Under the pieces are notes generated by a model. It was given only the letters and a program-made list of their open reading frames with translations, was not told where the DNA came from and did not search any database. A DNA stretch of 64,000 nucleotides from Escherichia coli. GTDB taxonomy: Bacteria > Pseudomonadota > Gammaproteobacteria > Enterobacterales > Enterobacteriaceae. The position numbers and the translations under genes were made by a program. The stretch lies in the NCBI RefSeq assembly GCF_029227855.1, contig NZ_CP074356.1; one strand, 5' to 3'. This document shows, in pieces, positions 4,363-35,743 of the stretch. Position 1 is the first letter of the stretch. Every line of letters starts with the position of its first letter.

Positions 4363-5285
4363 CGCTGGCGATTGACAAAACGGCGGCGCTGCTCGTCGTT
4401 CATAAAGGTCCAGGCAATAAAGCGGCTCTGCTTTTGCCCCTGGGCCATCTCTTTTTTGACCACTTTCACCGCGCCCACGTCCGTCAGAGCACGATACAAC
4501 GGCGGCAAGTTTTCGCCACGAGATACCAGCGAGGTAAACCACATCACCTGCTTCGCGAAGCCTTTGCTCTCTTCAATCATCTTTTTGATAAAAGCGACTT
4601 CACCGCCTTCACACCACAACTCCTGTTGCTGACCACCAAAGTTCAGTGCATCGTCTTTGTTCAGCCCCAGGTTACGGCGTTTACGTTCACTACCTGCCCG
4701 TGCCGCAGCGGCGGAATCGTGGAATGGCGGGTTACACAAGGTCGCGTCGTATTGCTCGTTTTTATGGATGATGCCGTTAAAAATCGCCCCACTCTCTTTT
4801 TGCCGACGCAGACGAATGGCGCGGTTAAGCCCCGGATTAGCACTGATGATCGCCTGCGCACTGCTTAACGCCTGGCTGCTGGTTTCACTACCAGTAAAAC
4901 GCCAGCCATATTCATGTACACCAATCAGCGGGTAAATACAGTTCGCACCAACGCCGATATCCAGAATGCTGGCATTAGCTGGAATTGTTCCGCTTGCTTC
5001 TGCCAGTAAATCGGCAAGGTGATGAATATAATCCGCCCGGCCCGGTACTGGCGGGCAGAGAAAACCGTCGGGGATATCCCAGTTCGCTACGGCGTAAAAA
5101 TGGGCCAGCAACGCCTTATTGAGCGCCTTCACCGCCAGCGGATTGGCAAAGTCTACGCTTTGCTCCCCGGCGGGTGTAAGCGTGAGGAATTGCCTGAGTT
5201 CAGGATTGACCTGACAAAGCGTGGCGAGATCGTAGCGGCTGTGATGACGGTTGCGCGGATGCAACCCCGGTTTCTGGGCGGACAT
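4359..5285 (-). CDS. rlmF: 23S rRNA m6A1618 methyltransferase
   Basis: 308-aa ORF matching RlmF (YbiN) in length and sequence; converges on ybiO with a 4-nt overlap. Confidence 0.9.
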
Positions 5286-12307: not shown

Positions 12308-14458
12308 TTAACGCCGCCGACGGCGTGGGGATTTCGTTTTTTCTTTCTTTTTAACTATACCTTCAGGGACTTCCGGTTGCTCTATCGGAAATACCGGTAA
12401 TGCATCCAGTAGCCGCTTGCCGTAGTTTTTGGTGAGCAAGCGTTTATCGTAAATCACCACTTCGCCCCAGCAACCGTGGCTTCGAATCAGTCGCCCAACC
12501 TGCTGAATCAGGTTAAACGAGGCGCTCGGCAGGCTTTGCACCTCAAACGGATAGCGGTTGAGGCTTTTCAGCCATTCCCCTTCGGTGATCACCACCGGGC
12601 TGTCGATGGGCGGAAAAGCGATTTTGTGGATATGCACCTGGCTGAGCAGATCACCTTTCAAATCAAGCCCTTCGGCAAATGACTGTAAGCCCACCAGCAC
12701 GCTGCGCTCACCGTTGGCGACGCGTTTGCGGTGCAGTTCAACTAAACGGTAACGCGGCTGATCGCCCTGCACCAGCAACATCAGACGTAAATCCGTCACA
12801 TAATCGAGAAAGCGCTGCATCGCCCGTCCGCTGGCAAACAGTACCAACATACCGAGATGTTTTTTGCTCTCCACCTGCTCACGGAAAAAGGCCGCCATTT
12901 CGGCAATATGCTGCTCTTCGTTGTCGAGGGAAGGCTCAACGCGCATCCGGGGAATAACAATTTTGCCCTGTTCGCAGTGGTTGAAGGGGGAATCCAGCGC
13001 CACAAAACGGTCGCCCGCTTTCTCTTTCAGACCACTCATCTCCTGCAAACGCGAAAAACTATTCAGCGAACGCAAGGTTGCGGAGGTGACAATAATGTGC
13101 GGAATACTGCGCCACAGCAGCCTTTCCAGCTGATCGCTGACACGTATCCCCACGCAGTGAAACCAGAGATGCAGTTGCCCTTCGCGCTCTTCCCGCGTCG
13201 CCCATTTGGTCACCGGCGCACCGGAAGATTGCGCCAGAGACGCCAGCCGCCAGAGTTTGCTTTGCGCCTCGAACATCCCCAACGCGCGGTTCATCTGCAA
13301 AATCAACCGATGCAGGCGTACAATGTCATGGCTGCCGGTTTTCTCACTTAAATCGTTAAGAAATAACTCCGCCAGACCACGCAGCATCTCGGTGAGTTTT
13401 GCCAGCCGCTGGCAGATCTCCAGCACTTCATCAGGCAGTTCGCCCATCGCAAAACGGTGCTCTGCCTCCTGCCCGGCAGGCATGTAGAGATTGAGAATGT
13501 TGTTTAACGAGGCGATAAGCTCATACAACTCTTCACAATGCGCATTCAAACGTTCAGGGATCGCCAGCGGTGGGATGGTCTTCGGGCGAAACTGCTCCGT
13601 GCAGGTAGCGACCAGTTTCGTGAACAAGTCCAGCTGTAGCCGATACCACGACGCGGTGATTTCGGCGCTCATCTCCAGCGCATCCCGCGCCACATCTGGC
13701 AGGTGATGACCTTCGTCCAGCACCAGCAGCAGATTTTTCGGGTCAGGCAGTACGGCTTCGCTTTCCATCGCCGCCATCACCAGCGCATGGTTTGCCACCA
13801 CCACTTCCGCTTCCTGAATCTCCCGACGAGCAACAAAAAACGGGCATTCACGATAGTAGTAACAGTTACGGTTGAGGCAGCTGGCTTTGTCGGTACTCAA
13901 ACGACGCCAGAGATCATCATCTATAGCGATATCCGTATGATCGCGCAGACCATCCCATTTATAAGTGTCGAGATCGCCCTTCAACTTTGCACAACGCTTT
14001 TGCTCTTCCTGATTGTTCGGCGTCAGCTCGTCGTCAAGAAACGCCAGCAGATCCTGTTGCGTGGGCTCAGTGCTGGCAAGCGCCGTCAGATTACGCGGGC
14101 AAACGTAGCGCCCACGCCCAAAAGCGGCAGTGAATTTAAGATCGGGAATGATCTTTTTCAGCAGTGGCAAATCTTTGCTGTAGATCTGATCCTGCAATGC
14201 TACGTTGGCGGTACTCACCACCAGCGTTTTTTGCTCTTCGCGGGCAATGGCGATACCGGGGATCAAATAGGAGAGCGTTTTCCCAACGCCGGTGGGGGCT
14301 TCAATCGCCAGATGCCGCCCTTCTTCTCCGGCCAGCGTTTTGGCGACGTCCGCAATCATCTGCCGCTGCGGCGCACGGGGAATAAAGTCGGGGATCTGTT
14401 CCTGAAGCGCCTTATACCAGGCGGCAATTTGCGCTTTAAGCGCGGCGGTTAATGCCAT
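12308..14458 (-). CDS. dinG: ATP-dependent DNA helicase DinG
   Basis: 716-aa ORF with DEAH motif (VLDEGHH) and Walker A (GVGKT); length matches DinG. Confidence 0.95.
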   Translation of the reverse strand: MALTAALKAQIAAWYKALQEQIPDFIPRAPQRQMIADVAKTLAGEEGRHLAIEAPTGVGKTLSYLIPGIAIAREEQKTLVVSTANVALQDQIYSKDLPLLKKIIPDLKFTAAFGRGRYVCPRNLTALASTEPTQQDLLAFLDDELTPNNQEEQKRCAKLKGDLDTYKWDGLRDHTDIAIDDDLWRRLSTDKASCLNRNCYYYRECPFFVARREIQEAEVVVANHALVMAAMESEAVLPDPKNLLLVLDEGHHLPDVARDALEMSAEITASWYRLQLDLFTKLVATCTEQFRPKTIPPLAIPERLNAHCEELYELIASLNNILNLYMPAGQEAEHRFAMGELPDEVLEICQRLAKLTEMLRGLAELFLNDLSEKTGSHDIVRLHRLILQMNRALGMFEAQSKLWRLASLAQSSGAPVTKWATREEREGQLHLWFHCVGIRVSDQLERLLWRSIPHIIVTSATLRSLNSFSRLQEMSGLKEKAGDRFVALDSPFNHCEQGKIVIPRMRVEPSLDNEEQHIAEMAAFFREQVESKKHLGMLVLFASGRAMQRFLDYVTDLRLMLLVQGDQPRYRLVELHRKRVANGERSVLVGLQSFAEGLDLKGDLLSQVHIHKIAFPPIDSPVVITEGEWLKSLNRYPFEVQSLPSASFNLIQQVGRLIRSHGCWGEVVIYDKRLLTKNYGKRLLDALPVFPIEQPEVPEGIVKKKEKTKSPRRRRR

Positions 14459-14472
14459 GAGAAAACCTGAAA

Positions 14473-14492
14473 TACTGTATAAACAGCCAATA
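14473..14492. promoter_or_regulatory. LexA (SOS) box of dinG
   Basis: tactgtataaacagccaata is the reverse complement of the known non-canonical dinG SOS box TATTGGCTGTTTATACAGTA, 15-34 bp upstream of the dinG ATG. Confidence 0.7.
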
Positions 14493-31717: not shown

Positions 31718-33739
31718 TCACGACGCGGCAATAAACAACTCACGCAACTGATGCAACTGGTCACGAATTTGCGCCGCTTCTTCGAACTCCAGATTCTGCG
31801 CGTGTTGCATCATCAACCCTTCCAGTTCATGGATCTTCTGCTGTAACGCTTTAGGCGACATATCCATCGGCACATTATCCGGCTCAACAATTGGGCGCGA
31901 TTTTCCTCTGCCCTTCGCTTTGGTTTTGGCAATGTTCTGCCCCAGCGCCAGGATATCGACCACTTTCTTGTTCAAGCCCTGCGGCGTAATACCGTGTTCC
32001 TCGTTGTACTTCTGCTGTTTCTCGCGGCGACGTTCGGTTTCGCCAATCGCTTTCGCCATTGACGGGGTGATCTTATCGCCGTAGAGAATCGCTTTACCGT
32101 TAACGTTACGCGCCGCACGACCAATAGTCTGGATCAACGAACGTTCAGAACGCAGGAAGCCTTCTTTGTCGGCGTCGAGGATCGCCACCAGCGACACTTC
32201 TGGCATATCCAGACCTTCGCGCAGTAAGTTGATCCCCACCAGCACGTCGAACTCGCCCAGACGCAAGTCGCGGATAATCTCCATACGCTCGACGGTGTCG
32301 ATATCGGAGTGAAGATAACGCACGCGCTCGCCGTGTTCTTCGAGATATTCCGTGAGATCTTCCGCCATTCGCTTGGTCAGAGTTGTAACCAGTACGCGTT
32401 CGTTAATTGCCGCTCGCTGACGAATCTCCGAAAGAAGATCATCAACCTGTGTCGCCACTGGCCGCACTTCGATAATCGGATCAAGCAATCCGGTTGGACG
32501 CACCACCTGATCCACCACATCGCCGCCCGATTTTTCCAGCTCGTAATTACCCGGCGTCGCCGAAACATAGATGGTTTGCGGCGCTAATGCTTCGAACTCT
32601 TCAAACTTCAGCGGACGGTTATCCAGCGCTGATGGCAGGCGGAAGCCGTACTCCACCAGCGTCTCTTTACGCGCCCGGTCACCGCGATACATGCCGCCAA
32701 TTTGCGGAATGGTGACGTGTGATTCATCGACCACCAGCAGCCCATCGGCAGGCAGGTAATCAAACAGCGTCGGCGGTGGCTCACCCGGTCCACGACCGGA
32801 GAGGAAGCGCGAGTAGTTCTCAATCCCGGAACAGTAGCCCAGCTCGTTCATCATCTCCAGATCAAACTGGGTACGCTGGGTCAGCCGCTGCTCTTCAAGC
32901 AACTTGTTGTTCTCCAACAGCACTTTGCGTCTGGCGGCCAGTTCTTCTTTGATCTCTTCCATCGCCTGTACGATGCGCTCGCGCGGCGTGACGTAGTGCG
33001 TTTTCGGGTAGATGGTAAAACGTGGAATAGTGGAAACAATCTGCCCGGTGAGCGGGTCAAATAACGACAATCGTTCCACTTCCTCGTCAAACAGCTCCAC
33101 GCGAAGTGCAATGTCATCCGATTCTGCTGGGAAGATATCAATCACCTCACCACGAACGCGGAAAGTACCACGCTGGAATGCCTGATCATTACGAGCGTAT
33201 TGCAGCTCCGCCAGTCGGCGCAGAATCGCGCGCTGATCGATAATCATACCGACCGTGAGATGGAGCATCATCTTGAGATATAAATCAGGATCGCCCAGAC
33301 CATAAATCGCGGAAACAGAGGCCACTACAACCACATCACGCCGCTCCAGCATCGCTTTGGTGGCGGATAAACGCATCTGCTCAATATGTTCGTTAACCGA
33401 GGCATCTTTCTCAATGAAGGTGTCGGAACTCGGTACATAGGCTTCCGGCTGATAGTAGTCGTAGTAGGAGACGAAATATTCCACCGCGTTTTCCGGGAAG
33501 AACTCTTTCATTTCGCCATACAACTGGGCCGCCAGCGTTTTGTTGGGCGCAAGTACCATGGTAGGGCGCTGAAGATCAGCAATGACATTGGCAATGGTGA
33601 AGGTTTTCCCGGAGCCAGTCACGCCAAGTAACGTCTGATGCGCCAGGCCATCTTCCAGCCCCTCTTCGAGACGTCGAATCGCCTCTGGCTGATCGCCAGA
33701 AGGTTTAAAAGCGGAATTCAGTTTGAACGGTTTACTCAT
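31718..33739 (-). CDS. uvrB: Excinuclease ABC subunit B
   Basis: 673-aa ORF with Walker A GVTGSGKT and helicase motifs; matches UvrB. Confidence 0.97.
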
Positions 33740-33813
33740 GAGTCGCTACCTGAAGGAGTTGGGCGGGCAGGTATGTAATTTTACTCGTCGTACTTAATTA
33801 TGCCAACAAATTA

Positions 33814-33833
33814 TACTGGATAAAAAAACAGTT
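33814..33833. promoter_or_regulatory. LexA (SOS) box of uvrB
   Basis: aactggataaaaaaacagtt (CTG-N10-CAG) in the uvrB promoter region. Confidence 0.65.
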
Positions 33834-34135
33834 CCTCACCATAATATTTCTGTTACAGCGTAAACTCCGCTGTCAATCATGAGCAAAATTTACTCTGTGG
33901 CGAGATAAAACTCCGGCCTTACCGGGTTATCCCCAAAGCAACGGCTTTTTTAACATTTGTCAAGATGAGTGATGACAGTTTTATGGCAAGAGATGCCTCT
34001 TCAGTGACTGCCATTGCAATTATCTAACCAGTTAAAAAATAAAAGATATTTCTTTGAGCCGTCTTTAACGCCAATTCGCGTGCAAGCCGCGTATTCTCTC
34101 GCTTGCCTCGTGTTTTCTAACTCTAATACACATGG

Positions 34136-34159
34136 TTATCCACAGGAATAGTGGATAAC
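34136..34159. promoter_or_regulatory. Pair of inverted DnaA boxes in the uvrB upstream region
   Basis: ttatccaca (34136-34144) and gtggataac (34151-34159) match the DnaA box consensus TTATNCACA in opposite orientations. Confidence 0.5.
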
Positions 34160-34317
34160 TGTCTGCAGCCCCTATCCCCCGCCGCCTGGGCAATTCCCAC
34201 ATTCATCGCATGATGCGGAAGTAAAATTTTTTTCGTGATTATTTTAGAATTTAATTGGTTAAATTGCAGTCAATCGAAGACGCGATCTCGCTCGCAATTT
34301 AACCAAATACAGGATGG

Positions 34318-34995
34318 CTACAACAAGGCAAGGTTTATGTACTTTCCGGTTGCCGCATTTTCTGGATTTTCTGCAAGCCAGGGGATCTCTCCCAGCAGCG
34401 GCGCGGGAATCATGCGGGTGAGCGTGGTCATATATTCAGCGTGACGTTTTCCCGGAGGCGTGACATCATTCGCCACCCAACCCGCCAGAGTCAGCCCGGC
34501 GTGTTGTATTGCCTGTGCCGTCAACATCGCGTGATTAATACAGCCGAGTTTCACACCAACTACCAGTATCACCGGCAGTTGTTCCTGTGTTACCCAATCT
34601 GCAAAAGTGAAAGTGTCAGAAAGCGGCGTAAACCAGCCGCCAGCACCTTCCACTAACACCCAGTCAGCCTGTTGTTCAAGCGCGCGTAATCCGGCGCTCA
34701 TTACCAATGATTCTATCGGCCTGCCCTCTTGTGCGCTGATGATGTGCGGCGAAGTGGGTTCTGCGAAGGTGTAAGGATTTACCGTTGCGTAATCCAGCTG
34801 CAGGCTGCTGTTGCGCTGTAACGCCAGCGCGTCACTATTACGTAAGCCTTCCGGGGTCTTTTCGCTGCCAGAGGCGACCGGTTTATAACCTGCCGTCCGA
34901 TAACCTGCTGCCTTCGCGGCTTGTAAAAGTGCACAACTGGCGACAGTTTTCCCCACTTCGGTATCCGTTCCGGTGACAAAATAACGTTTACTCAC
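34318..34995 (-). CDS. bioD: Dethiobiotin synthetase (GTG start)
   Basis: 225 aa from the GTG at 34995 ([17 protein letters not shown]-loop); matches BioD. Confidence 0.93.
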
Positions 34996-35743
34996 GAGCA
35001 ATTACTCCCAAAAAAAGATGATACGTCAGAGGATATCGCCCCTGTTGTTGCGGCCAGGCCAGTTGCAATCGCTGCAACTGCGAACGCGTTAATATTCGTG
35101 GGTCGCGCCCTTTATGAATATGCGTGGCACCGATGCCTTTCAGCGAACGCATGGCACTGAGCGCATCAGCAAACCACAGCGTGATGGGCTGAATATGATG
35201 TTGATAATGCACGCCGTTCAGCGACTGTTCGATTTCATCTGGCGGTAAAAAGCGATTAGCATGCGGGCGCTCGTCCACCGCCTGCCACGCCTGATGTAAT
35301 TCAGGGAGCGATCCCTGCGCCAGCGTGGTAAACGCGACCACGCCTCCGGGGCGCACCACCCTGTATAGCTCGCGGAGTGCCGTGGATAAATTACCGCACC
35401 ACTGCACCGCGAGATTGCTCCATGCAAGATCGAACGTCGCAGTCGCTAACGGCAGGGATTCGATATCTCCCGCCAGATAATGGTCTGCGGCATCTTTATG
35501 GCGGGCTTGCGCAAGCATTGGCGGCGAGAGATCTAACGCCGTCACCTGCGCGTGACGTTCCCGCCAGTGGCGGCTCATCCAGCCAGGTCCACAACCCGCG
35601 TCCAGTACGTGGGTGTATTTACGCTGTGGAAGCATTGCCAGTAAGACGTCAGCACTCTGGCGCTGTAACTCTGCGTGTTGCTCATAGTGCGCGGCTGCCC
35701 GACCAAATGCCGCTGCAATGGCTTGTTTATTAACCGTTGCCAT
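34988..35743 (-). CDS. bioC: Malonyl-ACP O-methyltransferase
   Basis: Internal ATG at 35743 gives 251 aa ([22 protein letters not shown]…) with a SAM-binding motif (LDAGCGPG). Confidence 0.92.

Follow-up and report, generated by a model that had tools for sequence, protein, structure and literature searches.

Described DARS and uvrB control elements

The closest described systems are the two DARS loci of Escherichia coli and the promoter region of uvrB. A DARS core is defined by three DnaA boxes, wherein box I is opposite to boxes II and III and lies 5 bp from box II, and in DARS1 box II is a full consensus (PMC6868365, PMC5742627, PMC8682772). DARS1 fragments with boxes I and II release ADP from DnaA in vitro, which depends on both boxes and on Gln208 (PMC6868365). 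DARS2, located upstream of mutH, has the same three-box core, spacing, opposed box I and ADP-release chemistry, but it depends on sites for IHF and Fis within a regulatory region of ~400 bp and is dominant in vivo (PMC8682772, PMC5742627). In contrast, DARS1 requires no accessory proteins in vitro, where a flank of ~50 bp is stimulatory, and it is the minor of the two loci in vivo (PMC5742627). ChIP-seq enrichment is modest at DARS1, reaching 16-fold versus ~200-fold at DARS2 and datA (PMC11317965). Deletion of DARS1 delays initiation or shifts the initiation mass (PMC5742627, PMC12371093), and the resulting cells are larger and have fewer origins (PMC12371093).

Boxes III and II of DARS1 resemble the direct double DnaA boxes of nrdA, polA, purH, oriC and datA, in that they are arranged head-to-tail at 3 bp, and the ChIP-seq list includes DARS1 alongside such sites (PMC11317965). 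However, those double boxes lack an inverted third box, and they serve regulation, origin opening or ATP hydrolysis rather than ADP release. The uvrB region has been described as carrying three promoters, with LexA-box1 falling between the -35 and the -10 element of uvrBp2 and overlapped by DnaA-box1, and with weak LexA-boxes 2-4 reported in addition by Wurihan et al. (PMC6015884). The distal promoter, uvrBp3 or P3, is repressed by DnaA through a perfect box called DnaA-box6, and ATP-DnaA footprints the boxes (PMC6015884). In Salmonella, a distance of 73 bp separates the uvrB SOS box from the ATG, and nalidixic acid induces the gene 14-fold (PMC8072944).

The window studied here is a 64-kb stretch of E. 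coli DNA in which the minus strand carries bioBFCD followed by uvrB (Table 1). The bioD-uvrB spacer measures 578 bp, just as the preliminary description of this DNA had given it and as is found in K-12 (bioD end 812947, uvrB start 813526). Over 751 bp spanning the spacer, the window is 100% identical to strain N3. This stretch is matched in 5424 of 5426 complete E. coli genomes, with at least 99% identity in only 817 of those 5424. Across 661 aligned bases there are nine substitutions and no indels relative to K-12, and none of these changes falls in the LexA box or in DnaA boxes I-III. One of them, at 34165, is 6 bp outside box I. The DARS1 element of K-12 (17.5 min) thus shares with the window its locus, the letters of its three boxes, the 5-bp and 3-bp gaps and the orientation, and nothing of substance differs apart from those nine flanking positions. 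Comparison with the published three-promoter region likewise revealed no differences: the identical 20-mer lies in uvrBp2 beside uvrBp1, and the DnaA-controlled P3 is ~350 bp further upstream (PMC6015884).

From these sequence comparisons, the spacer almost certainly comprises two known and separable cis elements, namely the SOS operator of uvrB and DARS1, the latter overlapping uvrBp3. Both have already been described. For this window, the result amounts to recognising again, correctly, two E. coli elements of textbook level, with the DARS1 label for the inverted DnaA boxes as its one correction. Sequence identity, geometry, statistics and conservation were derived here, whereas published work on the identical K-12 sequence supplies the binding by LexA and DnaA, the release of ADP, the effects on promoters and the deletion phenotypes. 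A search of positions 33000-35000 against Rfam at a permissive threshold gave no known RNA element and only a chance IRES match (E 0.52). In a few strains a copy of the spacer with DARS1 is plasmid-borne, accounting for two of ~5,429 places that match positions 33650-34400.

Table 1. Features of the bioD-uvrB spacer and its surroundings (window positions)
Feature	Positions	Strand	Basis and remarks
uvrB coding sequence (673 aa)	31718-33739	-	ORF; NCBIfam equivalog TIGR00631 (1111.7 bits); carries the uvrB annotation in strain N3 and K-12
Sigma-70-like promoter TTGGCA, 17 bp, TAAAAT	33778-33806	-	Promoter scan, 10/12 matches; just downstream of the LexA box
LexA (SOS) box of uvrB, published LexA-box1	33814-33833		uvrB-strand sequence AACTGTTTTTTTATCCAGTA; 74 bp ahead of the ATG
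Weak DnaA-like 9-mer TTATCCAGT inside the LexA box	33815-33823	-	6.65 bits
Short GC hairpin, CCGGTAAGGCCGG then AGTTTTATCT	33913-33925	-	Terminator scan; between uvrBp3/DARS1 and uvrBp2
Extra DnaA box TTATCCCCA	33927-33935	+	8/9 consensus; 12.25 bits, rank 6 in the window; between P3 and P2
uvrB-proximal conserved flank of the core (...ATTAGAGTTAGAAAAC...ACGCGGCTTGC)	34084-34123		Conserved alignment block; exact limits inferred
DARS1 DnaA box III TAATACACA	34124-34132	+	Orientation of box II, 3 bp from box II; match to the published DARS1 double box cTAATACACAtggTTATCCACAg
DARS1 DnaA box II TTATCCACA, published DnaA-box6, operator of uvrBp3	34136-34144	+	Perfect consensus; DnaA-box search; matrix rank 1
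DARS1 DnaA box I TTATCCACT	34150-34158	-	Opposite to box II, 5-bp gap; 8/9 consensus, matrix rank 14
bioD, upstream of the spacer, final gene of bioBFCD	34318-34995	-	NCBIfam TIGR00347; annotation

The inverted DnaA boxes and DARS1

There is only one zero-mismatch DnaA box in the 64-kb window. It is box II, which the preliminary description had already placed at 34136-34144, and it ranks first among 127,984 positions scored with a DnaA matrix built from the ChIP-seq sites of PMC11317965 with the DARS1 row omitted. Box I ranks 14th among the same positions. The matrix scans that had been proposed for both proteins thus put the LexA box and the perfect DnaA box each at rank 1. The second member of the pair had been located at 34151-34159. 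That interval is one arm of a perfect 9-bp inverted repeat, GTTATCCAC-N7-GTGGATAAC, and therefore the inverted partner is real but its coordinate was off by one, the 9-mer register being that listed in Table 1. The gap between boxes I and II occupies 34145-34149, and the gap between boxes II and III occupies 34133-34135.

All of the sequence features that define a DARS core are present. There are three boxes of which box I is opposed to boxes II and III, the I-II gap is 5 bp, the II-III gap is 3 bp, box II has the full consensus, and the location is the bioD-uvrB intergenic region known for DARS1. The inverted pair therefore corresponds to boxes I and II of DARS1. In addition, the string cTAATACACAtggTTATCCACAg at 34123-34145 is exactly the one that the DnaA ChIP-seq study (PMC11317965) gives for DARS1, with a peak coordinate of 813,331 that is ~200 bp off the boxes in NC_000913.3 numbering. 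The preliminary description had seen here a multi-promoter, DnaA-influenced uvrB region. This agrees with the region described for E. coli (PMC6015884), but the role as DARS1 and the existence of box III were missed.

Chance occurrence of these motifs in an AT-rich spacer must be weighed, because a lone perfect DnaA box is unremarkable, being found in 72 of 200 random 64-kb sequences (36%), and because loose CTG-N10-CAG matches are common, with 32 in the window having two or fewer mismatches. However, the two boxes facing head-to-head across 5 bp together score 25.88 bits, which is the top score for any pair and is reached by none of the 200 random sequences (maximum 21.01), and the LexA score of the uvrB box also exceeds all 200. 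Furthermore, experimentally mapped sites have exactly these sequences, which are invariant across ~5400 genomes while the neighbouring sequence varies. Specifically, the 47-bp core at 34118-34164 is unchanged in 5422 of 5423 genomes of E. coli, whereas the adjoining 47 bp (34165-34211) are identical in only 170 of 5376. A chance origin is consequently rejected on the random-sequence scores and the genome conservation, and we assign it a negligible probability.

The mechanism published for DARS1 (PMC6868365) predicts the following sequence of events at these boxes. ADP-DnaA would first bind the perfect box II and would then recruit further protomers, head-to-head over 5 bp at box I and head-to-tail over 3 bp at box III. 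A Gln208-dependent head-to-head AAA+ contact would next make the protomers of boxes I and II release their ADP. The apo-DnaA would depart and rebind ATP to become initiation-competent. DnaA on the boxes that overlap the distal promoter would also repress uvrBp3.

This last effect leads to another possible interpretation, which is the one implied by the preliminary description, wherein the inverted boxes are only a transcriptional operator that represses uvrBp3 and have no part in nucleotide exchange. A TG-to-CA mutation of the perfect box does derepress P3, raising its activity 5.9-fold (PMC6015884), and similar head-to-head pairs are located just upstream of many genes elsewhere, as expected of an operator. 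On the other hand, DARS1 fragments with exactly these boxes release ADP in vitro, needing boxes I and II and Gln208 (PMC6868365), and it is already published for K-12 that this release by the fragment is lost on inversion of box I. Deletion of DARS1 also shifts the initiation mass (PMC5742627, PMC12371093), and the other DnaA-regulated promoters listed by ChIP-seq (nrdA, polA, purH) use direct double boxes rather than inverted ones (PMC11317965). We therefore consider it very improbable that the boxes act only as an operator. DARS1 is an element of the replication cycle and not primarily a uvrB operator, with uvrBp3 merely overlapping it. Its function as DARS1 is better established than its regulation of uvrB, and it explains the inverted geometry. 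The DARS1 label shifts the biology of this site from uvrB regulation to control of the nucleotide state of the replication initiator.

To compare other genera, genome contigs were searched with the pattern TTATCCAC-N6-TGTGGATAA, which fixes boxes I and II. Their conservation across genera is therefore by construction, and the independent observations are box III, orientation and linkage. There are 21 loci with uvrB and/or bioD among the listed matches, 19 of them with the core upstream of uvrB and two showing only bioD; because the sample is based on a pattern, it cannot give the frequency of orthologous bioD-uvrB spacers without the core. All 19 have the same orientation, namely box I, box II, box III and then uvrB. 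A box III TGT at the 3-bp gap, which is outside the search pattern, is invariant in all 21. Core and ATG are 332-447 bp apart in Enterobacterales and Vibrio. For Shewanella, Parashewanella, Colwellia, Cognaticolwellia and Pseudoalteromonas the distance is 428-1791 bp, and for Aliidiomarina, the nineteenth uvrB locus, it is 3255 bp.

Outside Enterobacterales, a DARS1-type core upstream of uvrB is found in Vibrio (loci L036 and L069), Shewanella and Parashewanella (L042, L063, L075), Colwelliaceae (L071, L112), Pseudoalteromonas (L020, L032) and Aliidiomarina (L027). In the two Vibrio loci a LexA box is also retained, 37-40 bp ahead of the uvrB ATG. In the Alteromonadales uvrB loci, whose cores are 0.4-3.3 kb off, there is no scoring LexA box within the last 400 bp.

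Within Enterobacterales, further conserved blocks are the flank at ~34084-34123, a block at ~33946-33966, the extra DnaA box at 33927-33935, and the LexA box together with the P1 region. The flank is placed like the ~50-bp stimulatory region of DARS1 and like the core promoter of uvrBp3. DARS1 is described as 101 bp long, including the ~50-bp stimulatory region (PMC5742627), and these limits, like the P3 start site, are second-hand or inferred.

The inverted repeat formed by boxes I and II also raises the question of an RNA hairpin, which could terminate transcripts reading through from bioBFCD. A terminator scan flagged this palindrome on the minus strand, and its predicted RNA fold has a free energy of -16.5 kcal/mol (z -2.46). 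However, only four of the nine stem pairs are G-C, and the stem is followed by the tail CAUGUGUAUU, which contains no U-tract. Moreover, it is the DnaA-box letters and the unpaired third box that other genera conserve, while the loop and flanks vary, and DnaA footprints and ChIP signal have been observed on the palindrome (PMC6015884, PMC11317965). An intrinsic terminator was rejected on the absence of the U-tract and on the conservation of DnaA-box letters; its probability is slighter still than that of a function solely as operator.

The SOS operator and promoters of uvrB

The LexA box of uvrB reads TACTGGATAAAAAAACAGTT on the plus strand, and its reverse complement AACTGTTTTTTTATCCAGTA is identical letter for letter to the published uvrB SOS box given by Wurihan et al. 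2018, quoting Fernandez de Henestrosa et al. 2000 (PMC6015884). LexA footprint and mutation data have been published for this same sequence (PMC6015884). A symmetrised LexA matrix was prepared from 24 other E. coli SOS boxes, omitting uvrB and dinG. With this matrix the box scores 23.96 bits and ranks first among 63,981 positions in the 64 kb, with the runner-up at 14.69 bits. The training sites have a median of 21.0 bits and a weakest score of 13.2 bits; they come from the literature (Lewis 1994, Fernandez de Henestrosa 2000), and the exact score, though not the rank, is to be taken with caution. None of 200 Markov-1 random 64-kb sequences reaches the score of the uvrB box, their highest value being 21.99 bits and their mean maximum 11.7 bits. 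The preliminary description had proposed a CTG-N10-CAG LexA box at 33814-33833, and identity to the published site, matrix rank and the random sequences all uphold it.

This palindrome has an AT-rich centre and scores like known sites, and it also overlaps the promoter of a damage-inducible gene, in that it adjoins the TTGGCA-17-TAAAAT promoter and shares its end with a TATAAT. Of 5330 matching E. coli genomes, 5327 have the same 43-mer around it (33792-33834). A LexA box is present at the equivalent position in nine other Enterobacterales and in two Vibrio species, and genera with a high-scoring equivalent include Citrobacter, Enterobacter, Pantoea, Rahnella, Rosenbergiella, Photorhabdus and Vibrio. 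A LexA dimer on this site would occlude the proximal promoters uvrBp1 and uvrBp2. On DNA damage, RecA-stimulated self-cleavage of LexA would free them and UvrB would rise.

From the published promoter layout, the TTGGCA-17-TAAAAT promoter would be uvrBp1. Its hexamers are kept in most Enterobacterales alignment rows and are lost in Rosenbergiella and Photorhabdus and partly in Rahnella. Similarly, the minus-strand TATAAT at 33815-33810, which overlaps the end of the LexA box, presumably is the -10 element of uvrBp2. A consensus promoter scan recovered neither uvrBp2 nor uvrBp3 as a strong match and gave no strong sigma-70 match at the DARS1 core, and thus the positions of both promoters rest on the literature. 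The weak DnaA-like 9-mer inside the LexA box probably corresponds to the published DnaA-box1.

There is also an extra DnaA box between P3 and P2, probably equivalent to a member of the published series DnaA-boxes 2-4. Its uvrB-strand sequence is TGGGGATAA, and among ten Enterobacterales rows the GATAA half is found in all ten and the exact 9-mer in eight. Its first four columns are at least 90% conserved among these rows, and the box is absent from the search pattern. Beside it, at ~33946-33966, lies the block TTGACAAATGTTAAAA, which is conserved in most of the ten Enterobacterales spacers and is also outside the search pattern. This TTGACA block has no good -10 element at 17 bp.

The short GC hairpin at 33913-33925 has a weak predicted RNA fold (-13.5 kcal/mol, z -1.7). 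Its stem sequence is unconserved, and a GTTTT run recurs across Enterobacterales. Perhaps this hairpin could serve as a candidate attenuator of P3 transcripts. Another inverted repeat, with 16-nt arms TAATTGGTTAAATTGC and GCAATTTAACCAAATA and a 26-nt loop containing GATC, spans 34252-34309 and starts 9 bp past the bioD stop codon. Its predicted RNA fold is -20.9 kcal/mol (z -3.1) and no clear U-tract follows. It may be the terminator of the bio operon or a protein site.

Two further LexA-box matches were noted elsewhere in the window. The sequence TACTGTATAAACAGCCAATA at 14473-14492 differs from TACTG-N10-CAGTA at one position, and its LexA-matrix score is 11.5 bits. It is located 14 bp upstream of the ATG of a minus-strand ORF of 716 amino acids (12308-14458) that NCBIfam identifies as DinG. 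This sequence is the SOS box of dinG, and its 14-bp distance is the same as that listed for Salmonella. The other is TGCTGGTTTCACTACCAGTA at 4877-4896, which at 14.69 bits is the second-best match to the matrix. It scores just above the weakest training site (13.2 bits) and falls within the range of the random 64-kb sequences (mean maximum 11.7, maximum 22.0).

The three-box arrangement in other bacteria

There are at least 120 loci that match the pattern for boxes I and II, where ~35 would be expected by chance for the whole collection. Among the listed matches, 68 of 121 instances have TGTG at a distance of exactly 3 bp past box II, a feature that is absent from the pattern. This recurrence of the third box indicates that the full three-box module is widespread. 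Approximately 48 of 120 listed loci adjoin genes for DNA metabolism, these loci not being phylogenetically independent. In the gene contexts that are tabulated, the motif is upstream of the 5' end of the gene (Table 2).

Table 2. DNA-metabolism genes downstream of the DnaA-box motif
Gene	Loci	Taxa	Distance of motif from gene
priA	16 by clustering, 12 confirmed by tblastn (L013, L025, L046, L049, L093, L095, L102, L104-L106, L108, L121)	Xanthomonadales, Burkholderiales, Chromatiales, Thioalkalivibrio	5-325 bp
xseA	4 (L021, L028, L110, L114)	Neisseriaceae, Nitrosomonas, other Beta/Proteobacteria MAGs	167-211 bp
uvrC	3 (L006, L043, L122)	Acetobacteraceae	~36-72 bp from ORF start
dnaB helicase	2 (L004, L094)	Actinomycetota	222 and 293 bp
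mutS	1 (L015), two motif copies	Conchiformibius	245 and 445 bp
dprA	1 (L014)	Conchiformibius	47 bp
DnaB_2-family gene	1 (L118)	Clostridium	195 bp

The head-to-head pair near genes for repair, restart or replication spans Proteobacteria, Actinomycetota and Bacillota, and a third box at 3 bp is usual. At the priA and uvrC loci, box III lies distal to the gene, which is the reverse of the uvrB arrangement. A search of one literature collection found nothing on such triads at priA, uvrC or xseA. We know of no DARS element that has been characterised outside E. coli. Conservation of DARS2 in beta- and gamma-proteobacteria has already been reported (PMC8682772, PMC5742627).

These gene associations cause us to consider, as a tentative and rather doubtful proposal, that the three-box arrangement, instead of being particular to enterobacteria, might be an old and widespread DnaA module found preferentially in promoter regions of genes for DNA repair, restart and replication. 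DARS1 at uvrB and DARS2 at mutH of E. coli would in that case be two examples of a general coupling, independent of LexA, between the state of DnaA and genome maintenance. If this is true, there would be a conserved link across phyla between initiator status and genome maintenance, and a simple sequence signature would be available for finding DARS elements outside E. coli.

Other contexts of the core involve metabolic genes or genes of unknown function. Two more groups of loci recur. In six Pseudomonas loci (L017, L019, L022, L023, L061, L103) the core is located beside DUF1232 and HTH genes, and in four Vibrio loci (L024, L035, L068, L084) it lies ~50 bp from a gene for an FtsX/MacB-like permease.
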